NCBI GenBank assembly: GCA_965203095.1
Contig: OZ241877.1
Span: 1,408,001 to 1,472,000, forward strand
From: Bdellovibrionales bacterium
GTDB taxonomy: Bacteria; Bdellovibrionota; Bdellovibrionia; Bdellovibrionales; UBA1609
Direction of reading: 5' to 3'
DNA: 64,000 nucleotides
A program made the position numbers and the translations under genes. Numbering within the stretch: the first letter of the stretch is position 1; each line of letters begins with the position of its first letter. The notes under the pieces are model-generated. The model was not told the DNA's origin, did no database searches, and saw only the letters and a list, made by a program, of their open reading frames with translations. Below are positions 2,311 through 63,898 of the stretch, piece by piece.

Positions 2311-2390
2311 TATAGATAGAGATTAGAGAGAAAAATAGAGAGTTCTGAGGCTTAATCCACCCATTTAATCTTGTCTGTGTTCAATGCTCC
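2311..2390 (-). repeat. Cassette 3' constant tail
   Basis: GGAGCATTGAACACAGACAAGATTAAATGGGTGGATTAAGCCTCAGAACTCTCTATTTTTCTCTCTAATCTCTATCTA, shared with six other sites. Confidence 0.9.
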
Positions 2391-3464
2391 TGGCAATTTG
2401 CCACGATATCTTGATTTCATGATTGCTCCTTGAAAGTCTGCTCCCCGCACATCCGCTCCCCGCATTTCCGCTCCCCGCAAGTCTGCTCCTTGCAACTTTG
2501 CGCCCTGGAATATAACATGTCGCAAGTCGGTTCCCCGCAAATTTTGCCTCCGCAAGTCGGCTCCCCAAAAATTCGCCACTTTATACTTCTTGACTTTTGA
2601 GGTAAATGCTCCCCCTGCCCACACTCTGGCTATATATTCAAGAGAAATTTTTGCTCCCTGTAAGTCTGCTCCCCGCAAGTCTGCATTATGGAATTGCCCA
2701 AACCATAGTTTTGCTCCTCGCATTTTTGCTCCCCGCAAGTTCGCTTTTGATAAGTTTGCATGATGAAAAACCGCAAGTCTCAAGTCCGCCCCTTGCAAGT
2801 TTGCTCCCTGCATTTTAGCATGTTGCAAGTCTGCCCCTCTCAAGTCTGCTCCCTGTAAGTTTGCTCCCTGTAAGTTTGCTTCCCTCAAGTCCGCATTTAG
2901 CAACATTGCTTTTTGTAAATTCACTTTTTCCAAGTTTGCTTTCCATAACTCTCCATTTCGCAAGTTCGCCTCTTGCAAGTTTGCTCCCCGGAAGTCCATC
3001 ATCCATAATTTAGTTCCTAACAGGTCGGCTTTTTGTAAGTCGGCTCTCTGTAAGTTTGCTTGTCGTCTGACAGCCGGCTTGACTTTGCTACCTAACATGG
3101 CATTAAATTCAATCTTACTATTTTCAATCACAAAATAGAATCTTACACCCCTTAAGTTTGTTTTTTGTAAGTTTGCTCCCCGCAAGTCTGCTCCCAGAAA
3201 GTCTGCTCCCGATAAGTTTGCATCTCGCAAATTCGCATTCCGCAAATCCGCCTCCTGGAATTTCGCCCCCCGCAAGTCTGCTCCCCGCAAGTTCGCCCCC
3301 CGCAACTTTGCATGCCAAAAATCTACTCCTCGCAAGTTTGCCCCCGATAGGTTTGCTCCCGACAAGTTCTTTTTCCCTTGTTTGATTTTTTTTATCAGCT
3401 CTGCTTGATTTTGAGCCTGAGCTGGGATTGCAAAACATAAGAGGATTAAAAACAGACCTTTCAT
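2352..3464 (-). CDS. Secreted pentapeptide-repeat protein (class A head)
   Basis: Signal peptide MKGLFLILLCFAIPAQA, many A(D/N)LxG repeats, C-terminus GALNTDKIKWVD. Confidence 0.92.
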   Translation of the reverse strand: MKGLFLILLCFAIPAQAQNQAELIKKIKQGKKNLSGANLSGANLRGVDFWHAKLRGANLRGADLRGAKFQEADLRNANLRDANLSGADFLGADLRGANLQKTNLRGVRFYFVIENSKIEFNAMLGSKVKPAVRRQANLQRADLQKADLLGTKLWMMDFRGANLQEANLRNGELWKANLEKVNLQKAMLLNADLREANLQGANLQGADLRGADLQHAKMQGANLQGADLRLAVFHHANLSKANLRGAKMRGAKLWFGQFHNADLRGADLQGAKISLEYIARVWAGGAFTSKVKKYKVANFWGADLRRQNLRGTDLRHVIFQGAKLQGADLRGAEMRGADVRGADFQGAIMKSRYRGKLPGALNTDKIKWVD

Positions 3465-3535
3465 ACTTATCTTATCGGGTTATTGTCCGGGAAAATAAAG
3501 GCTTTTGTAAATTTTTCACACAAAGGGCAGAGCTT
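3465..3535 (-). promoter_or_regulatory. Cassette 5' constant head/promoter
   Basis: CTCTGCCCTTTGTGTGAAAAATTTACAAAA...TTCCCGGACAATAACCCGATAAGATAAGT-ATG; parts are shared with the 27350, 28845, 60955 and 62844 upstream regions. Confidence 0.7.
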
Positions 3536-26103: not shown

Positions 26104-26131
26104 CTGGATTTCCGCAAAAGCAGGAATCCAG
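26104..26131. repeat. dRS3/REP-like palindrome
   Basis: CTGGATTTCCGCAAAAGCAGGAATCCAG. Confidence 0.7.
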
Positions 26132-26690
26132 AAAAGCCTGGAGATTTTTTCATTATGAACCTCATAGCTGTTTGACTTACAGACACAAAATGATAAACTT
26201 GCAACATCCATTGTTGGTTTATCATTTTGTGTTCTTATGTTGCTGGCCTCATTCCCTGAATGGGGCTTTTGACTATCCGAGTCCATAAGTGAAGTTTTTT
26301 TGTCAAGCTGACTGTCCCCTATGTCAAACTGGATTTTTCAGTAGGCAGAGTAGGATTATTTAAGTTTAGGATTTTGTTAAAAAAACTTAAAGCCTCCCGG
26401 CAAAAAAAGAGCCGTAAACTGTGGCCACCCCCTTTTGCTTGGGACTCCACACTTGTTTTTAAGGCTTATTTGCGTCTTGAAGGGCTGGATGTGGATGTGT
26501 TTTCAGAGGGATAAAGAACATATCGGCCACTGCCAATTCTGGTTTCGTCCCATTTCAATGTTTCCTTTGTCAAGTCTCTGCCTCTATCAAGCCATTTTTC
26601 CTTTGTCCAACTATCAGCCAGAATAGGCTTTTTTCCACAGCTGAGGCTTTTTGATAGAAGATTAGAGAGAAAAATAGAGGGGTCTTAGGC

Positions 26691-27350
26691 TTAATTCCCC
26701 CAGTTAATCTTGTCTGTGTTCAATGCTCCGCTGGCCATAATCATGTCACGATATGTTGAGTCTATAAAAACCCCCGCTAAGTCTGCTCCAGTCAGGGTTG
26801 CTTCTGTTAAGTTTGTTCCTGTTAAAGTCGCTCCCTCCAAGTTTGCCTCTGTCAAGTTTGCCTCTGTTAAGTTTGCTTTTTTTAAATTTGCCCTTGTCAA
26901 GTTTGCCTTTGTTAAGTCTGCCTTTGTCAGGTTTGCCTTTGTTAAGATCGCCTTAAACAAGTCTGCCCTAAACAAGTTTGCCTCTGTTAAGTTTGCTTTT
27001 TTTAAATTTGCCCTTGTCAAGTTTGCCTTTGTTAAGTCTGCCTTTGTCAGGTTTGCCTTTGTTAAGTTCGCTTTTATCAAGTTCGCCCCTTTCAAGTTCG
27101 CATTTATCAAGTTCGCCCTTTTCAAGTTCGCTGTCAGCAAGATCGCTTCCGCTAAATCTTTTTTCCCTTGTTTTATTTTTTTTATCAGCTCTGCTTGTTT
27201 TTTTCTCTCTTCTAAAGTGAGTTGTGGAATAGTCATATAAGTCCCCTTTTCAGTCTCTTCTAAGGTGATTTGATTAAGCTCTACCTTCCGTTGGTTTTGC
27301 CCCTGAGCTGGGATTGCAAACATAAAAAGAATTAAAATCAGACCTTTCAT
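26691..27350 (-). CDS. Secreted pentapeptide-repeat protein (class A head)
   Basis: MKGLILILFMFAIPAQG signal, ANLTK repeats, tail GALNTDKINWGN; exact internal 94-nt duplication. Confidence 0.92.
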   Translation of the reverse strand: MKGLILILFMFAIPAQGQNQRKVELNQITLEETEKGTYMTIPQLTLEERKKQAELIKKIKQGKKDLAEAILLTANLKRANLINANLKGANLIKANLTKANLTKADLTKANLTRANLKKANLTEANLFRADLFKAILTKANLTKADLTKANLTRANLKKANLTEANLTEANLEGATLTGTNLTEATLTGADLAGVFIDSTYRDMIMASGALNTDKINWGN

Positions 27351-27411
27351 ACTTATCTTATCGGGTTATTGTCCGGGAATATAAAGAAAAAAGAACCGTA
27401 AACTTTTGCGT

Positions 27412-27662
27412 TCATACTTTTCCCCATAGTTTTTTATAGCGTTCAAGTTCTTTTTGTGAGAGTTCTGCGTCTTCACTGTTGTTGGGTTGATTTTGTTGCA
27501 GTTTTTTGGCTTTGATTTTTAGTGCTTGCATTTCTGGGGAAACACCTAAGAAGTGGGAGGCCATAGTTAAAGCGTGATTGGGGTCAATATCGCCTTCTAA
27601 TGATCTTTGTTTGCCTTTTGGTTTTCTGGCTGTCCGGGATTTTCTTAGTATTTTTTTCTCAT
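27412..27662 (-). pseudogene. Possible small gene frameshifted in an A7 run
   Basis: TATAAT-N8-ATG at 27662; ATG AGA AAA AAA TAC TAA, but one extra A opens ~80 codons (ILRKSRTARKPKG...RYKKLWGKV). Confidence 0.3.
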
Positions 27663-27781
27663 AATGTGCTATTATAGGCCATTTTAGATTGTTTTTTGTG
27701 AGTCTAAAGTCTTGGGTTTAAAGAGGGATAGAGCCGTATACTGTGGCCACCGGGAAAAAGCAAATAAAGGGAATAAAGAGG

Positions 27782-28051
27782 CTATTTGTTTTTGTGTGCT
27801 TGCTTTGACGGATTGTGAGAATGATTTTTAAACTCATAAAACAGCTGTTTAAGCTCCGCTTGCCCCTCTTTTATGCTATCTATATCACTTGATAGCTTGG
27901 CTTGGCCAGCCTCAATCCTGTCTATCCTCTTATCAAGATTAACCTGATTAGCCTTAACCGGAGCTAAAAGGAGATTAAAGACAATTCCTAAGCCAGTTAA
28001 AATAGCCACAAAAGCAATAACAGCTTGAAATAAAGGAGTAAAGATTTTCAT
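27782..28051 (-). CDS. Small TM + coiled-coil protein (cassette-like)
   Basis: N-terminal TM, heptad coiled coil, perfect promoter directly upstream. Confidence 0.75.
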   Translation of the reverse strand: MKIFTPLFQAVIAFVAILTGLGIVFNLLLAPVKANQVNLDKRIDRIEAGQAKLSSDIDSIKEGQAELKQLFYEFKNHSHNPSKQAHKNK

Positions 28052-28057
28052 ACATCC

Positions 28058-28086
28058 ATTATATGGACATTGGCCGGGAATGTCAA
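28058..28086 (-). promoter_or_regulatory. Consensus sigma70 promoter, leaderless arrangement
   Basis: TTGACA-TTCCCGGCCAATGTCCA(17)-TATAAT-GGATGT-ATG. Confidence 0.85.
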
Positions 28087-28190
28087 GTTTTTATTTCAAG
28101 TGCTCAAATATCAGCCAGAATAGGTTTTTTTCCCAGCTGAGGCTTTTGATATAGATAAAAATTAGAGAGAAAAATAGAGGGGTCTGAGGC

Positions 28191-28845
28191 TTAATCCACC
28201 CAGTTAATCTTGTCTGTGTTCAATGCTCCGCTGGCCATAATCATGTCACGATATTTTGAGTCTATAAAAGCATACAATAAGTTAGCCCCTTTAAAATCTG
28301 CTCCTTCCAATTTCGCCCCATGCAATTTTGTCGCATTCAAGTTAGCTTTTATTAAGACTGCCTCTGTTAGGTCTGCCTCTGTTAGGTCTGCTCCTACCAA
28401 GTTAGCCTTTGTTAAGTTTGCCTCATACATGGTCACCCATCTTAAGTCTGCCTCTGTTAAGATAGCCTTTGTCAAGGTTGTTGCGGGTATTCTTATCAGT
28501 TCCATTATTGCCCTTGTTAAGTTTGCCATTGTCAAGTTTGCCTTATAATAAGTCTGCCTCTCTCAAGTCTGCCTTCGTTAAGTTAGCCCTTGTTAGGTCT
28601 GCCCATCTCAATTTTGCCTTTGTTAAGTCCGCATTTGTCAAGTCCGCCTCTCTCAAGATTGCCCCTCTCAAATCAGCCCCTCTCAAGATTGCCTTTGTTA
28701 AGTCCGCATTCGTTAAGTCTGCCCTTCTCAAGTTTTCCCCTTCTAAGTCTTTACATTCCCCTTGTCTAATTTCGTCAATCAGGTCTGAGTCTAAGGCCAA
28801 CCCCGGCAAGTTCATTAAAAGGATAAGGCTTAATAGTATTTTCAT
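28191..28845 (-). pseudogene. Secreted pentapeptide-repeat protein (class B head), +1 frameshift near 28546
   Basis: ORFs 28543-28845 and 28191-28535 join if one T is removed from GAC TTA T TAT AAG; head MKILLSLILLMNLP, tail GALNTDKINWVD. Confidence 0.85.
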
Positions 28846-29149
28846 TGTGTAGGGTTATAGCAGGATGGATCGGGAAGATAAAGTTTTTTTTAGTCTTTTG
28901 TAAAATTTTCACACAAAAGGGCAGACTTTATTGTGGGGCTTTGTCCTTTAAGCTGGTCTTTTGCTTATGCGATAACGGACAGAGCTTTTTCACGAGCGAC
29001 TTAATCGCCTGTGAAAAGCCTTGTTAAAAAGATTGCATTATTCTTCAATTTCTTTAAAAGCCATAGCTTGCTTTTCCATAAAAAGCACTTTATACTATTT
29101 TTTTGGATTCTCAGTAAGTTAAACACCAACTAATAAGGAGAATATACCA

Positions 29150-30121
29150 ATGAAAATCAAAACTCAAAAAACCAGAAAAGAACTTGGGGAGTTTTCGGTA
29201 TTAAAGCCCGGAAACCATCACGACAAATTTTTTAAAAGATTCTATTCTCAGCCTCAATTTGCTGAGGAGATTGTGAGATTGATATTGTCTAAAGAGGAGT
29301 TAAAAGCCTGTAATCTATCAAAACTCAAAGTAGAAAAAAGCCTTTTTAAAGATAAGCAAATGGACTTGGTTTTGTCTTTTCCCCTAAAAAACTTTCCTAA
29401 AAGCCAGATCAGGATAGTCGTCCTGTTTGAGCACAAGTCCAAATATGACAAAAATCTCTTTAAGCAGGTTTTAAGGTATCAGACAAAGCTTTATGAGCAG
29501 TCCCAACAGAGGATAGTAGTAATTCCTGTTTTGTTTTATCACGGAAAAGTCCCTTGGAGTTGGAAGTTGTCTTTTCAGGAGGCTGTTTTAGGAGAGTTTT
29601 TTTTAAAAATTCCTCGATCTTTTAGAAAAAACATGTTAAATTATGGTTTGAGGTTATTGAATACAGGGGATAGGAGGGTTCAGAGGGTTTTTGATGATCG
29701 GAGTTTTAAGACGGGTCGGGTTTTACAGTTGTTGGACCGTGTGTGGTTTTTAAAGGATAATGAGCGGGAGTTGCGGGAGGTATTATTTGCTTTTTTTAGG
29801 GTTTTTAAGCGTGATGAGTGGATATTGGCTGTGGCCAAGTATTTGAGGTCGGCGGGGGTGAGTTTTAAACTTTGGAACAAGTTGGAGGAAGAGGCTATTA
29901 AGAAGGCTTTATTAAAGAAAGGAGGCTATATGGACATAAAAGAGGAAATTCGGCTGGAAGGTCGCTGGGAAGGCGAAAAAAAAGGCTTTAGAAAAGGCCG
30001 GCAAGAGGGACGGGAGGAAGTTATCCGGAATATGTTGAGAGAAAAGGTAGATTTGGCTTTCATCTCTAAAGTGACGGGCCTACCTGTTCGAGAGATTAAA
30101 AAGCTTAAAAACGGTTCTTGA
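29150..30121 (+). CDS. Rpn/YhgA-family PD-(D/E)XK nuclease (putative transposase family)
   Basis: HDKFFKRFYS, MDLVL...LFEHKS, VIPVLFYHG, C-terminal EGREE...ISKVTGL; AGGAG RBS. Confidence 0.9.
   Translation: MKIKTQKTRKELGEFSVLKPGNHHDKFFKRFYSQPQFAEEIVRLILSKEELKACNLSKLKVEKSLFKDKQMDLVLSFPLKNFPKSQIRIVVLFEHKSKYDKNLFKQVLRYQTKLYEQSQQRIVVIPVLFYHGKVPWSWKLSFQEAVLGEFFLKIPRSFRKNMLNYGLRLLNTGDRRVQRVFDDRSFKTGRVLQLLDRVWFLKDNERELREVLFAFFRVFKRDEWILAVAKYLRSAGVSFKLWNKLEEEAIKKALLKKGGYMDIKEEIRLEGRWEGEKKGFRKGRQEGREEVIRNMLREKVDLAFISKVTGLPVREIKKLKNGS
29930..30121 (+). CDS. Internal in-frame small protein (RpnS-like antitoxin), 63 aa
   Basis: AAAGGAGG-CTAT-ATG inside rpn, in frame (offset 780 nt): MDIKEEIRLEG...KNGS. 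Confidence 0.7.
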   Translation: MDIKEEIRLEGRWEGEKKGFRKGRQEGREEVIRNMLREKVDLAFISKVTGLPVREIKKLKNGS

Positions 30122-30303
30122 TTCTTTTTTAGTTTGTTTGTCCGTGTTTTGTCACTTTAGAGATGGGCTTGTTTAAAAAGCCCCTTATAAAAAGCTCTTT
30201 GGCTTTGTCTTTTAAGCTGAATTTTTCGAGGTTTATTTTGTTGCCCTTCTGAGGGGAAGGAGTATAGATAAAGATCAGAGAGAAAAATAGAGGGTTTTGA
30301 GGC

Positions 30304-31043
30304 TTAATCCACCCAGTTAATCTTGTCTGCTTTCAATGCTCCTTTTAATGATCCAAGATATTGATATTTTGAGTCTATATAAGCTCCTTCCAAGTTTGCC
30401 TTTCTAAAGGTTGCCCCCCTCAAGATTGCCTCTCTCAAGTCTGCCCCTTTTAAGTTTGCCTTTGTCAAGTTTGCCTTTATCAAGCTTGCCCCTGTCAAGT
30501 TCGCCCTTGTCAAGTTCGCCTTTGTCAAGTTCGCCTTAAACAAGTTTGCCCTTCTCAAGTCTGCATTTGTCAAGTCTGCCTTATACAGGTTAGCCCATAC
30601 CAAATCTGCATTTGCAAGTTAGCCCTTCTCAAGGTTGTCTTATACAAGTTAGCCTTATACAACTTAGCCCCTTGCAAATTTGCCCCGGTTAAGTTTGCCT
30701 TATACAAGTTTGCTTGCCTCAAGTCTGCTCCTGTCAAGTCTGCCTCATTCAACATCGCCCTCCGCAAGTCCGCTCCCGCCAAATCTTTTTTTCCTTGTTT
30801 TATTTTTTGTATCAAAATCCCTTGTTTTTTTTGCTCTTCTGAAGTGAGGGGGGGCAAAACAAAAGCAGGGGATCCCCCACTATTTATCAAGTTAGCCCCT
30901 CTCAAGTCTGCTCCCGCCAAATCTTTTTCCCCTTTCTTTATTTGTGCAATAAGACTCCCTTGTTTTATTGGATCAACTGGTTTAAGCGACTCCCCCTGAG
31001 CTGGGATTGCAAAAAATAAAAGAATTAAAATGATTTGTTTCAT
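30304..31043 (-). pseudogene. Secreted pentapeptide-repeat protein (class A-like head), -1 frameshift near 30615
   Basis: AAC TTG (A)CA AAT GCA GAT TTG: one missing A splits ORFs 30570-31070 and 30304-30603; tail GALKADKINWVD. Confidence 0.85.
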
Positions 31044-31343
31044 GTTCCCTCCGTTTAAGGATTGTTTCATGTTTACTTTATCGGCTGGTTGTCCGTGTTT
31101 TTAAAGTCCTGTTTTTTAAAACTTGACTTTAGTTCTTTAAGTTCTTTTGAGAGGCTGTCTATTTTTTCATTGGCTGATTTTAATTCCTGTTTTAGCTGAT
31201 CGTCCGTTTTGCTGAGGGCTTTTAGCTCTGAGTTTTGGACTTTAAACTTTGCCTCTATTGTGGATTTGTTTAAAAAACTTTAGAAAAAAATGGCCAGATC
31301 AGGCAAAAAAACTAAAAAATTGCCTATAAAAAATCTCTGTTCT

Positions 31344-60069: not shown

Positions 60070-60330
60070 GGCTGACTTTTGCTTATGCGATACATTTACA
60101 GAGGTTTTTCATGGGAAAAATACCTTGGATCCTTATGGCAGGGCCTTTAGGCAAAAACAGCTAAACAGTCGTTCCCGCCTTGAGCGGGAATCCAGAAATC
60201 TTTTTCCTTTCTGCAAAGCTTGTTAAAAAGGCAAAATTCTTTAGTTTATTTGCTCAAAGGCCACAGCATTTCGGGACGGCAATACCTTGGACCCTCATGC
60301 TGTGGTTTTGGGCAAAAGCAGTTAAACAGT
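60070..60330. mobile_element. Cluster of MITE fragments, dRS3-like repeat and full hairpin core
   Basis: Partial arms at 60070-60170, GTCGTTCCCGCCTTGAGCGGGAATCCAG at 60168-60195, full stem-loop at 60249-60317. Confidence 0.7.
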
Positions 60331-60582
60331 CATCCCCTTATTATTGGAACGGGATCGGTTTTAGCTGGCGGAGGCATTGGTTGCCTTATAGGAAACCTTA
60401 CAAGAGAAGGCTCGGTTCTTCCAACTGTGCTTCTCGGAGGAACTACCATTATTATACTTACGAGCAGTGCTCTCAGACATTTTTTCCCGCTACCACTTTT
60501 TACAACGGGAGCTTTTTTCGGATCCTTGTTTTGCATGGGGAAAAATTTTGATATAATCCATTTTTTTGAAAACATTTTTTAA
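60330..60582 (+). pseudogene. 5'-truncated Gly-rich membrane-protein cassette
   Basis: Open frame IIGTGSVLAGGGIGCLIG...HFFENIF followed by the cassette tail TAAGCCTCAAAACCCTCTATTTTTCTCTCT; 5' part occupied by the hairpin element. Confidence 0.45.
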
Positions 60583-60954
60583 TTAAGCCTCAAAACCCTC
60601 TATTTTTCTCTCTTCTATCTATACAAAAGCCCTCAGCTATCAAATAATCCTTAAAAACAAGTGTGGAGTCCCAGAGAAAAGGGGGGGGTCTGTTCTCTAA
60701 GGGTGCCCCATCATCTTTTTCCAAGAATCAGGGAAAAATCGCCTATAAGCCTTGTCTATATTGCCTTTCAGCTGATTTTTTTTAGGTTTTTTTTTGCTTT
60801 TTTTGTTAAAAACAGGCTCCGGGGGGAAAATGTCCTGCCCCCCATTGTGATTATCATGCCACCCCCTTTCCTTTGGGACTCCGCTGTGTGAAAAATTTAC
60901 AAAATGCTTTTAAAGACTTTACTTTCCCGGACAATCCTGCTACAACCAAACACA

Positions 60955-61260
60955 ATGAAAATACTATTAAGCCTTATTCTTTTTATGAGCTTGCCCGCTT
61001 TTGCTAATAACTGCCATGATGCTTTTGATCCTGAAACTGAAAAGGAGGCAGAATGGAACGAAAAAGAATTTAAGAGAGGATATTTGTCTGGAGTTAAGAA
61101 GACTAAGAAGACATTATTGAGAGATTTTTTGATATTCGGAGCGATAGGATCGATAGGAGCGATAGGGATGGGAGCAGGGTATTTAGTAGGTCAAGAGATG
61201 ATCGATGTTTTGGATAAAAAAACAGAACTGATGATACTGGAAAGCCAACAAAAAAATTAA
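60955..61260 (+). CDS. Small secreted/membrane protein (class B head, Gly-zipper-like TM)
   Basis: MKILLSLILFMSLPAFANNCHDAFDP...GAIGSIGAIGMGAG; constant tail follows the stop. Confidence 0.75.
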   Translation: MKILLSLILFMSLPAFANNCHDAFDPETEKEAEWNEKEFKRGYLSGVKKTKKTLLRDFLIFGAIGSIGAIGMGAGYLVGQEMIDVLDKKTELMILESQQKN

Positions 61261-61557
61261 CTGAAGCATTGAACAAAGACAAGATTAACTGGGTGGATTA
61301 AGCCTAAGAACCCTCTATTTTTCTCTCTAATCTCTATCTATATTCCTTCCCCTCAGAAGGGCAACAAAATAAACCTCAAAAAATTCAGCTTAAAAGGCAA
61401 AGCCTAAAAACTTTTAGGGAAAGAAACCTTGGTTTCACGAGGTCCAGCTGTTCTGGATTCCTGCTGTCACAGGAACAACGGTTCCCTGTGTCTAAGAAGC
61501 TTTTTAAACAAGCCCACCTCAAAATGACAAAATACAGACAAACCAACTAAAAAAGAA

Positions 61558-61761
61558 TCAAGAACCGTTTTTAAGCTTTTTAATCTCTCGAACAGGTAGG
61601 CCCGTCACTTTGACGATGACAGCCAAATCTACCTTTTCTCTCAACATATTCCGGATAACTTCCTCTCGTCCTTCCTCTCGTCCCTCTTGCCGGCCTTTTC
61701 TAAAGCCTTTTTTTTCGCCTTCCCAGCGACCTTCCAACCGAATTTCCTCTTTTATGTCCAT
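61558..61761 (-). CDS. Internal RpnS-like small protein, 67 aa
   Basis: AAAGGAGG-CTAT-ATG in frame at offset 780. Confidence 0.7.
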   Translation of the reverse strand: MDIKEEIRLEGRWEGEKKGFRKGRQEGREEGREEVIRNMLREKVDLAVIVKVTGLPVREIKKLKNGS

Positions 61762-62541
61762 ATAGCCTCCTTTCTTTAATAAAGCCTTCTTAATAGCCTC
61801 TTCCTCCAACTTGTTCCAAAGCTTAATATTTACCCCCGCCGACCTCAAATACTTGGCCACAGCCAATATCCACTCATCACGCTTAAAAACCCTAAAAAAA
61901 GCAAATAATACCTCCCGCAACTCCCGCTCATTATCCTTTAAAAACCACACACGGTCCAACAACTGTAAAACCCGACCCGTCTTAAAACTCCGATCATCAA
62001 AAACCCTCTGAACCCTCCTATCCCCTGTATTCAATAACCTCAAACCATAATTTAACATGTTTTTTCTAAAAGATCGAGGAATTTTTAAAAAAAACTCTCC
62101 TAAAACAGCCTCCTGAAAAGACAACTTCCAACTCCAAGGGACTTTTCCGTGATAAAACAAAACAGGAATTACTACTATCCTCTGTTGGGACTGCTCATAA
62201 AGCTTTGTCTGATACCTTAAAACCTGCTTAAAGAGATTTTTGTCATATTTAGACTTATGCTCAAACAAGACGACTATCCTGATCTGGCTTTTAGGAAAGT
62301 TTTTTAGGGGAAAAGACAAAACCAAGTCCATTTGCTTATCTTTAAAAAGGCTTTTTTCTACTTTGAGTTTTGATAGATTACAGGCTTTTAACTCCTCTTT
62401 AGACAATATCAATCTCACAATCTCCTCAGCAAATTGAGGCTGAGAATAGAATCTTTTAAAAAATTTGTCGTGATGGTTTCCGGGCTTTAATACCGAAAAT
62501 TCCCCAAGTTCTTTTCTGGTTTTTTGAGTTTTGATTTTCAT
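61558..62541 (-). CDS. Rpn/YhgA-family PD-(D/E)XK nuclease, second copy
   Basis: Near-identical to 29150-30121; differs at SF/NI, an extra GREE and AFISK/AVIVK. Confidence 0.9.
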   Translation of the reverse strand: MKIKTQKTRKELGEFSVLKPGNHHDKFFKRFYSQPQFAEEIVRLILSKEELKACNLSKLKVEKSLFKDKQMDLVLSFPLKNFPKSQIRIVVLFEHKSKYDKNLFKQVLRYQTKLYEQSQQRIVVIPVLFYHGKVPWSWKLSFQEAVLGEFFLKIPRSFRKNMLNYGLRLLNTGDRRVQRVFDDRSFKTGRVLQLLDRVWFLKDNERELREVLFAFFRVFKRDEWILAVAKYLRSAGVNIKLWNKLEEEAIKKALLKKGGYMDIKEEIRLEGRWEGEKKGFRKGRQEGREEGREEVIRNMLREKVDLAVIVKVTGLPVREIKKLKNGS

Positions 62542-62843
62542 TGGTATATTCTCCTTATTAGTTGGTGTTTAACTTACTGAGAATCCAAAAAAATAGTATA
62601 AAGTGCTTTTTATGGAAAAGCAAGCTATGGCTTAAAGAAATTGAAGAATAATGCAATCTTTTTAACAAGGCTTTTCACAGGCGATTAAGTCGCTCGTGAA
62701 AAAGCTCTGTCCGTTATCGCATAAGCAAAAGACCAGCTTAAAGGACAAAGCCCCACAATAAAGCTCTGCCCTTTTTGTGAAAAATTTACAAAATGCTTTA
62801 AAAGAGTTTGTTTTCCCGGACAATCCTGCTATAAACAAACACA

Positions 62844-63113
62844 ATGAAAATACTATTGAGCCTTATCCTTTTAATGAACTTGCCGGCTTTTGCTAACTGC
62901 CGGGATGTTTTTGATCCTAAAAAAGAACAACTGGCAGACCTGATCACCCCAGCGAATTATAAAGACTTTAAGAGGGGATATAATCGGGGAGGATTAGAGA
63001 TTGGGATTGTGATGGCGATAGGAATTGTGATAGGGACGGTAGTGGCGGATTTTTTTCCGCCGATGGAGGTATTCTTTGAAGACAAGGAGAGCATTGAACA
63101 CAGACAAGATTAA
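62844..63113 (+). CDS. Small secreted/membrane protein (class B head), homolog of the 60955 protein
   Basis: MKILLSLILLMNLPAFANCRDVFDP...KDFKRGY...TM; ends in the constant tail read in a shifted frame (SIEHRQD). Confidence 0.75.
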   Translation: MKILLSLILLMNLPAFANCRDVFDPKKEQLADLITPANYKDFKRGYNRGGLEIGIVMAIGIVIGTVVADFFPPMEVFFEDKESIEHRQD

Positions 63114-63481
63114 CTGGGTGGATTGAGCCCTCAAAATCTCTATTATTACATAGCGTTGTGCGAAGTCAGGATAAATCTTGTATGGCCATAAGCAAACAGC
63201 CCGGAGACCGGGCTGAATGCAAAAACAAAGGAATTAATATGTCCGTCATAGAAACAGACATAAGCATTATCGGCCAGCGATCAACAAAAGTCAATTTTTT
63301 TTATGATTGAGGCTAATTTAACGGGGAATCTTATTTTTTTTCAGAATCTTTAATCTTTCCCATAATAAACCAGGTTCATGGTATTTTAATGGTTTTTTTC
63401 AGGCTGTTTCACTTTCCCTTGGCACTATCAAAGTTTGATTGTAAAGCTCAACTTAGCTTATTGGGGCAATGGCAGGTATTT

Positions 63482-63898
63482 TTAGCAGAAGGGAAAAACA
63501 AGGCATTTTTTTGGGAAACATACTTGTCTTGCTCGAATATAAAACCGCCTGGCCCTCTCAAAAGCACTTAAGCCGGGGTGCAATTTACAGGCAAGAGCAA
63601 ATTCTTCTCTGGAAAATGGAGTAAGGCCAATAGCCTCAATTAGCTTTTCTTTTTTGTTTCTGAGAACTTTAAAAAAGTTAACTACTTCCCCGTCTAAGTC
63701 ATTGTAGGTTTCCACCGGAGAAGGTTTCCGATTGAGTAAAACTGCTCCAGAACCGGCAAAAGGTTCGCAGTAATGGTGGCATTCTGGCAATAATGGGAGG
63801 AGCCAGTCTAAATGGCTGAATTTCCCCCCATACCAACCAAAGGGGATAAGTTTTTTCCCTTGAAGAATCTTTATTGGAGAAGGTTTATTTTTACCCAT
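63482..63898 (-). pseudogene. Truncated Dam-type (D12 class) DNA adenine methyltransferase
   Basis: WYGGK, YCEPFAGSGAV, ETYNDLD; similarity ends at RARQ and there is no DPPY motif. Confidence 0.8.

Follow-up and report, generated by a model that had tools for sequence, protein, structure and literature searches.

The DNA considered here is a window of 64,000 nucleotides (nt) from a Bdellovibrionales bacterium (positions 1408001-1472000 of C1, one of the two contigs of the source genome G000, which measures 1.80 Mb with 38% G+C and is 90% complete by markers), and its subject is a family of cassettes for predicted secreted proteins, each consisting of a head (~100 nt), a variable middle and a tail (~100 nt). 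One array of such cassettes occupies 26-31 kb of the window, where the order on the minus strand is a fibre-gene remnant, cassette 3 (broken), a tail, an rpn block (on the plus strand), a head, cassette 2 (broken), a tail, a coiled-coil gene with its own promoter, and then the head, cassette 1 and its tail. The features of this array and of the other cassette loci in the window are as follows (lengths of proteins in amino acids, aa).

26659-26727, minus: tail of cassette 1; 39-nt core at 26689-26727 encoding ALNTDKINW and the stop, CT-rich tract at 26659-26679
26691-27350, minus: cassette 1, intact gene for a 219-aa secreted pentapeptide-repeat protein with MKGL-type signal (PF00805, E 4.7e-50)
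27351-27385, minus: head of cassette 1; core TTCCCGGACAAT at 27368-27379, -10-like hexamer 6 nt 5' of the ATG
27782-28086, minus: D-type gene (27782-28051; membrane anchor and coiled coil) and its promoter TTGACA-17-TATAAT (28058-28086; 12/12 match, same core)
28159-28227, minus: tail of cassette 2
28191-28845, minus: cassette 2, MKILLS-type pentapeptide-repeat gene, frame broken near 28545
28846-28913, minus: head of cassette 2; palindrome U at 28899-28913, degenerate core at 28865-28876, extended -10
28937-30219, plus: rpn block 1; 19-nt direct repeats at 28937-28955 and 30201-30219, rpn at 29150-30121, internal AAGGAGG-ATG at 29919-29932 giving a 63-aa RpnS
30272-30340, minus: tail of cassette 3
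30304-31043, minus: cassette 3, MKQII-type pentapeptide-repeat gene with Shine-Dalgarno sequence and no promoter core, frame broken near 30620
31076-31267, minus: 3' remnant (coiled coil) of an S74-like fibre gene, 63% identity, E 1.7e-14
2320-3520, minus: single cassette with U, core, 370-aa pentapeptide-repeat gene (2352-3464) and tail; no rpn within 20 kb
60330-60618, plus: type-C 3' fragment with partial tail
60887-61333, plus: type-B cassette with U, core, 101-aa gene (60955-61260) and a tail read outside the cap frame
61386-62752, minus: rpn block 2; rpn at 61558-62541 (327 aa) between 19-nt direct repeats
62776-63128, plus: type-B cassette with U, core, 89-aa gene (62844-63113) and tail core

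An initial annotation of this DNA had listed six genes with shared ends (2352-3464, 26691-27350, 28191-28845, 30304-31043, 60955-61260 and 62844-63113), and for the tail the sharing is seen in all of them, as the 39-nt core is carried by each gene (0-2 mismatches) and the CT tract follows five (it is degraded behind 63113). However, the gene at 30304-31043 lacks the TTCCCGGACAAT head and starts with MKQIILIL behind a Shine-Dalgarno sequence at the fibre-gene 3' remnant. Further, the genes at 28191-28845 and 30304-31043, although present, are each broken in two frames, and a fourth gene of the 26-31 kb array, viz. that at 27782-28051, had been missed. The break near 28545 is covered without differences by contigs from the read sets X1, X3 and X4, and that near 30620 by contigs from X1 and X3, where X1 and X3 are possibly the source sample and X4 is another sample. 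The partial tail ascribed to 60330-60582 is there in the form of the last core bases and the tract only. It is also correct that an rpn gene lies inside both arrays on the opposite strand, its match to PF04754 being above cut-off and its TIGR01784 score 54.4 bits against a cut-off of 52.1. The 5' and 3' modules are likewise real, but what was presumed to be a 5' spacer is the 17-nt stretch that separates the two hexamers of a sigma-70-type promoter, and the 3' module is in large part coding. In the layout of the cassette 1 protein, a signal is followed by an N-cap helix, a solenoid and a C-cap, and in its structural model (pLDDT 87.6) these appear as a helix at 46-60, a beta-solenoid at ~64-194 and a cap helix at 198-206, the solenoid C-cap being encoded by the first part of the tail.

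Within the genome as a whole, 45 cassettes, each with a start and an end, were curated in 16 loci, with fragments and lone modules left out of the census. Pentapeptide-repeat proteins are the cargo in 35 of these, and the other 10 carry members of three orphan families, viz. type B (4 cassettes; a small protein with a Gly-rich membrane segment), type C (3; ~220 aa, with a constant N-half and a variable, hydrophobic C-half) and type E (3). The description of unrelated middles between ends that are constant at the DNA level is thus upheld, with cargo of four types. The modules also extend genome-wide beyond a few paralogues: the tail core has 34 matches and the CT tract 31 (none for either in shuffles), the head core 58 (7 in shuffles) and the upstream palindrome 55 (6.5 in shuffles). 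A single open frame runs from head to tail in 39 of the 45 cassettes; the remaining six comprise three broken repeat genes and three type-B genes that stop outside the cap frame. Within each array the orientation is uniform, the heads and tails lying on one strand. PF00805 has 141 matches in this genome versus 0-20 in nine congeners. The pentapeptide proteins, whose signal peptides were assigned by inspection of sequence shape, are of 85-370 aa with pI 4.7-10.6 (>8 in 19 of 32) and match the PF00805 profile down to E 1e-52. Qnr and MfpA are cytoplasmic gyrase protectors and DNA mimics, and the scores of the cassette proteins against these families (48 versus a cut-off of 240, and 42.9 versus 360), as well as against PipB, are far below cut-off. 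For type C no Pfam family was found, the Atlas score was only 0.76 and the model (pLDDT 40) is unusable; type E gave no Atlas match. Type C belongs to a wider family (23 matches), and because its members elsewhere have other N-termini, the type-C head was probably grafted on. These relatives (P0011-P0031) have a signal or lipoprotein start, a conserved domain ending in a GTQ.A motif and then a Gly-rich variable hydrophobic tail, a layout which we take to resemble that of precursor-like or glycine-zipper proteins; no Pfam family was found in any of the 8 tested.

As read from the sequence, the head is a sigma-70-type promoter-like block followed by a signal peptide. The core TTCCCGGACAAT, present in 35 of the 45 cassettes, forms the start of the 17-nt spacer between the -35 (TTGACA or TTTACT-like) and -10 hexamers. 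In a strict promoter scan the site at 28058-28086 matches at 12 of 12 positions, most other heads fail the filter, and the region overall is not enriched. The D-type gene behind this site, over which no Pfam family scores above cut-off, is the window copy of a dispersed family with ~25 other sites in the genome, where most members are preceded by a TTGACA promoter that is close to consensus and contains the same core; promoters of this kind number 21 genome-wide. The gap from the -10 hexamer to the ATG is only 6-9 nt in 33 of the 34 heads measured, and due to this the cassette mRNAs would be leaderless. Among 843 first-in-run long open reading frames, -10-like hexamers number 30, 23, 34 and 23 at gaps of 6, 7, 8 and 9 nt versus counts of 5-19 at other gaps, and this excess before the starts suggests that leaderless mRNAs are common in this Bdellovibrionales lineage. 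The palindrome TGTGAAAAATTTACA lies 37, 27 or 38 nt 5' of the core in 31 heads, which corresponds to 10-bp phasing, and also 32-33 nt before the TTGACA of three unrelated secreted genes; it is probably a regulator site. The latter genes (C1:94341, 134677 and 603344) encode three paralogous secreted proteins of 327-349 aa of no known family, and it is possible that they and the cassettes form one regulon. Of the 10 coreless cassettes, 9 have a Shine-Dalgarno-like sequence, and most of these are preceded by a fibre-like gene 3' end.

Several lines of evidence indicate that the cassettes have exchanged parts. Twenty of the 45 fall into 7 groups with shared middles (19 by clustering and 1 by partial sharing); one 155-aa middle is found at C1:477298, 965599 and 977897, i.e. 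in three arrays, its neighbours on either side differing from one array to the next, and another is present four times with differing repeat numbers. In 17 cassettes, all four gametes are observed at 15 of 20 head-versus-tail column pairs and at 19 of 46 within-module pairs. Mosaic structure is seen in heads and tails and also in middles and rpn copies, and when the loci were tiled with exact matches of >=50 nt, 27 putative crossover windows were recognised, of which 7 are in the head, 6 in the tail, 1 tail-to-head, 4 in the middle, 8 in the rpn block and 1 at a fibre-gene end. The overlaps are of 1-276 nt (median 23 nt) and have no common core, as GATTAAGC occurs in 3 of the 27 windows and the head core in 1. 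Based on these results, a reshuffling of cassettes between arrays is supported, but the further proposal that the constant ends serve as specific recombination sites is not. The interpretation that we find fairly probable is that of a lineage-specific exported family, with ordinary homologous recombination between the constant ends as its means of diversification and with rpn as a passenger. The genes recA, mutS and mutL are all present, and a loss of mismatch repair is not supported.

A simpler possibility is recent whole-gene duplication, with the ends held constant by protein constraint on the signal peptide and the caps. It accords with the facts that the tail core encodes a structural cap, that capped repeat families are common, and that two cassette loci are simple duplications beside IS1634 copies (the transposases at these tandem-duplication junctions lie at L054:11715-13493 and L056:7679-9469, one of them interrupting a murG copy). 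However, protein constraint permits silent change, and such change is present in the N-cap (46 of 175 same-residue codons differ silently) and nearly absent from the C-cap (2 of 178), as counted in 18 non-duplicate cassettes, which were selected by a protein motif since the choice of tails by DNA similarity would be circular. Since the cassettes are related, this comparison is no formal test; on this count the tail is homogenised at the DNA level. Non-coding parts are also shared, unrelated cargo carries the same ends, and the four-gamete and mosaic evidence is contrary to simple duplication, which the crossover tiling and the silent-site count largely refute and which we regard as highly improbable.

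The uniformity of the tail can also be read as a sign of programmed diversification, in which the tail is a cis-acting hotspot (like the downstream homology block, DHS, of Borrelia) recognised or cut by a factor in trans, such as the serine recombinase, a GIY-YIG nuclease or Rpn, thereby starting a conversion or circle excision that RecA completes. Apart from the near-absence of silent change, this would be consistent with the finding that type-B genes are still followed by the tail although it is out of frame there (as also in P0009, which comes from a different public assembly), with the lone tails that sit behind unrelated genes, and with the presence in this genome of a serine recombinase beside one array and of two GIY-YIG genes besides a UvrC-sized one. 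However, no invariant tail core exists and many tail variants are non-silent, while cargo joins the tail at varying points (~39, 21, 14 and 8 nt before the core end). None of 8 spacer strands folds better than shuffles (z 0.17-1.45), the tail has no inverted repeat and no Chi-like word (the GC skew being too weak for an analysis of strand bias), and the three Rfam matches are all far below gathering level. The dRS3-like hairpins, of which those at 26109 and 31484 flank the 26-31 kb array and that at 61457 is in an rpn 3' flank, are not enriched near arrays (3 of 18, with 2.19 expected), and 13 of the 27 crossover windows are outside head and tail. A programmed system of this kind is therefore considered unlikely.

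With regard to rpn, the initial annotation had placed the cassettes around an Rpn nuclease and suggested it as the engine of the shuffling. The first of these statements is true of the window, but genome-wide rpn is found in only 3 of 9 multi-cassette loci; the second probably does not stand. The genome has 15 rpn loci (16 matches), of which 4 are within 2 kb of a cassette locus and 11 are away from cassettes; conversely, no rpn occurs within 2 kb of 12 of the 16 cassette loci, the three largest arrays (6, 6 and 12 cassettes) among them. The four array-linked genes are near-identical (14-36 mismatches), have a common 230-nt upstream region fused to the head and are mosaics of each other, and because of this they are best explained by one capture followed by copying. 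An internal ribosome-binding site and ATG occur in all 15 loci, the products being of 55-76 aa and differing by four-residue repeats, and there are three RpnS-only loci. At L058 (C1:1346900-1347900), an internally deleted rpn that retains the upstream region and RpnS is seen, also in X1, X3 and X4. Genes of the RpnL/RpnS type have been described as anti-phage toxin-antitoxin genes, which are non-autonomous hitch-hikers with an intragenic antitoxin (PMC10400941; this and the other articles cited by PMC number are used here in excerpt). The resemblance to them extends to the domain, the internal start, the 4-aa repeat variation in the first RpnS helix, stand-alone RpnS, copy-number variation and hitch-hiking (PMC10400941; PMC5350276), whereas the fusion of one clade to a cassette head and the 19-nt direct repeats in 3 of 4 copies are differences. 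The array rpn is most likely such a toxin-antitoxin gene. In congeners, 2-48 rpn matches are found in 8 of 9; G009 has 48 PF04754 matches and no pentapeptide match, and in G002, G007 and G008, all three well assembled, the listed pentapeptide loci, 13 in number, are all more than 18 kb away from any listed rpn match. Judged from these genomes, rpn is expanded across the genus independently of cassettes. Many PF04754 frames of G009, at 400-547 aa, are longer than usual Rpn.

A role for Rpn as the dedicated, cis-encoded nuclease of cassette shuffling, with the constant ends as its sites, would be in line with the observations that all four intact copies of one rpn clade occupy the same position, divergent from a head, that rpn is nominally enriched near cassettes, and that overexpressed Escherichia coli Rpn raises RecA-independent recombination (PMC5350276). 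However, besides the distribution within this genome and its congeners described above, cleavage by RpnA has little or no sequence specificity and deletion of rpn paralogues left basal recombination undiminished (PMC5350276), and in this genome every copy has the RpnS layout and the rpn copies are themselves mosaic. Such a role is very unlikely; Rpn is probably a passenger and not the engine, and its breaks may contribute to recombination in trans.

The interpretation in terms of ordinary homologous recombination, with rpn as passenger, must also be weighed against a number of observations that do not sit easily with it. Compared with the signal-peptide region, where 28 x 17 codons show 26 silent differences, the tail is the more uniform, and plain homology alone is insufficient to explain this. 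Many crossover overlaps are short although mismatch repair is present, the ends of exact matches may be point mutations rather than crossovers, and no rearranged allele of a given locus is shown in reads. Of the 15 rpn loci, 4 lie within 2 kb of a cassette locus where 0.99 would be expected by chance (p 0.014), although these four copies are not independent; their orientation is fixed, which is at odds with pure accident, and 19-nt direct repeats surround 3 of the 4 array-linked blocks, where the excerpted text of PMC10400941 describes none for rpn. No empty site for this repeat was found in the genome, all 8 of its matches being beside rpn. Lastly, the only serine recombinase of the genome (252 aa, C1:975831-976589, L054:16331-17089, minus strand) is ~250 nt behind the last tail of the three-cassette array at C1:976.8-978.5 kb.

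As the genome is from a mixed sample and short-read contigs break at every module, it was also considered whether the arrays are chimeras of co-occurring strains. However, contigs of X1 and X3 show no differences over the unique parts of the 26-31 kb array, the depth of the unique cassette parts in X1 (21-26) is at the level of the flanks (19-20), and the rpn read depth is about four- to five-fold, as the copy number predicts. Since X1 and X3 are maybe the source sample, this comparison checks letters and copy number and not order; an artefact of this kind has nonetheless a next to negligible probability. In X1 an rpn piece at window 29950 runs into 154 nt absent from the genome, either a variant or another organism. 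Most joints of read contigs at the array are common to all runs and fit paralogues. X4 is identical to the genome over eight listed pieces (3,317 nt). It also has a head of the MKGL type that leads into cargo, at least 255 nt long, without a match in the genome (at a tolerance of 5 mismatches in 30; the loose ends inspected were 24 of 531, and the locus and strain are not assigned). Together with P0004 and P0009, which are further cassette-protein variants from other assemblies, this novel cargo is suggestive of ongoing turnover between samples. Two other candidate differences in X4 were rejected. Its holes over rpn and cassette 1 are not taken as strain differences, as X4 is also holed in glmU and the rpn hole is one contig's extent; and the tail variant at 26644-26658 cannot be assigned to the 26-31 kb array as an allele because the paralogous tail at C1:962726 differs from it by a single edit.

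The similarity of these arrays to known systems is partial in each case. Like integrons, they consist of short genes on the same strand with a repeated separator, and the same cassette occurs in different positions. However, in agreement with the initial annotation, no integron is recognised: the three tyrosine recombinases of the genome (90% complete by markers) have XerC, XerD and a phage-like protein as best matches, with IntI (TIGR02249) scores of 109.8, 97.1 and none listed versus a cut-off of 265, and no attC-like hairpin is seen; further, 35 of 45 cassettes have promoter-like heads, the repeat overlaps coding sequence and the crossovers are scattered. Nor do they correspond to a diversity-generating retroelement, as reverse transcriptase (PF00078) has no match in the genome (the control was positive in 3 of 14 genomes), or to a shufflon, as the cassettes of each array have one orientation; the serine recombinase scores 51.6 bits versus the Mpi cut-off of 272 and adjoins 1 of the 16 loci. 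It may still be supposed that the arrays are an integrase-free cassette system, in which a selected, factor-bound 3' module and a portable head with regulated promoter and signal peptide capture unrelated genes as co-regulated exported proteins, shuffled via circles or conversion at a rate set by Rpn breaks or the lone serine recombinase, but we regard this as doubtful.

A closer parallel is provided by the vlp/vsp surface-protein genes of Borrelia hermsii, which are exchanged by homologous recombination between a 5' upstream homology (UHS) and the 3' DHS block and whose archived copies are also mosaic (PMC6011951; PMC4534519); here too conserved 5' and 3' blocks appear to be used for exchange, as inferred from mosaics in one genome. 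However, the present genome, as read from its promoter-like heads and open frames, shows no single expression site, its tail is without the inverted repeat, and its cassettes are also reordered and moved between loci. The outer-membrane families of Ehrlichia and Anaplasma likewise consist of full-length paralogues in tandem, whose ends are conserved while the middles vary, within a small genome of a host-associated bacterium (PMC4534519); here, by contrast, the ends are common to unrelated families, with a pentapeptide solenoid of 85-370 aa as the main cargo. With the Rfr-type pentapeptide proteins (PF00805; PDB 3DU1, 2J8K) the cassette proteins share the right-handed beta-solenoid, but they differ from these as well as from Qnr and MfpA in their signal peptide, lineage-specific caps, 35 copies and pI of 4.7-10.6. 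The mosaic adhesive trimer (MAT) fibres of Bdellovibrio are an expanded, mosaic exported family with one conserved end and a proposed role in prey recognition (PMC10769870). The cassettes are likewise expanded, mosaic, predicted to be exported and conserved at an end, and the fibre genes that head arrays end in an S74-like domain (PF13884, E 5.6e-4, 20.6 bits versus a cut-off of 22, partial protein); however, the cassettes are not fibres, and the array-heading fibre has no PDB sequence match. The fibre-like gene, of 800-950 aa with a prepilin-like start, Gly-rich repeats, S74-like end and coiled coil, has six copies and remnants in the genome (L052:2841-5288, L056:3026-5689, and C1 near 111, 189 and 979 kb); the copies are mosaic and each heads a cassette array. 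It is single-copy in 4 of 9 congeners and is there not followed by repeat genes. A literature search, whose reach excluded supplements and most subscription papers, gave no account of these arrays.

The phylogenetic distribution of the modules is narrow. The nearest GlmU relatives are two Bdellovibrionales metagenome-assembled genomes at 73% and 63%, and the head and tail modules are not found as DNA in any of 30 relatives. The tail pattern had no match in metagenome and viral contigs, and a repeat-family protein pattern gave 16 candidates in metagenome contigs with none confirmed, where near-identical records are possibly outside the sets searched; a type-C protein pattern gave 32 candidates in genome contigs, none confirmed. 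The synteny of aroC and glmU is not kept in relatives, and due to this an empty-site comparison at aroC-glmU is not possible. X5, a run labelled as sponge metagenome, holds a related strain (22 of 30 bins covered, the longer pieces ~90-99% alike); reduced Bdellovibrionota have been reported from sponges (PMC9944714), and the organism is a probable sponge-associated relative of predators. In the congener G007, a coiled-coil gene comes after a tandem pair of MKGL-type repeat genes whose ATG is preceded by the same -10-like word; this unit is without the cassette DNA modules and has no rpn nearby. It is plausible that this unit represents the ancestral state.

If the genetic changes occurred by homologous recombination as proposed above, then a locus of two repeat genes and a coiled-coil gene, as in G007, would have been amplified, and gene conversion and unequal crossing-over of the RecA type within the shared ends (20-100 nt of near identity) would duplicate, delete, reorder and move cassettes and at the same time homogenise the tail. 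Rare short-homology events may have joined the head and a portion of the tail to secreted genes of unrelated kinds (types B, C and E), slippage would alter the repeat number, and the rpn block would have been trapped a single time between a tail and a head, to be copied thereafter by the same route. The N-cap helix resembles by eye a native segment of the type-C family; a profile match is also seen but is partly due to the shared signal peptide. The weakest step is the purpose, for which we envisage variable surface or periplasmic binding rods for the recognition of prey or host, each with its own promoter; a variable binding repertoire is the most likely role of the cassette proteins, the chance of its being correct perhaps even.

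The occurrence of 35 variable secreted pentapeptide rods and of orphan families in one exchangeable format within a reduced 1.8-Mb genome points to strong diversifying pressure on exported proteins. Rods with the same caps and differing length and charge also provide a natural panel for asking what secreted pentapeptide-repeat proteins bind. An integron-like layout can, on this interpretation, arise without an integrase, and the presence of rpn beside variable genes need not mean that Rpn drives the variation; the finding would gain in importance if some factor were shown to act on the tail. Adjoining the second array of the window, a truncated gene for a D12-class adenine methyltransferase is present at 63482-63898 on the minus strand.

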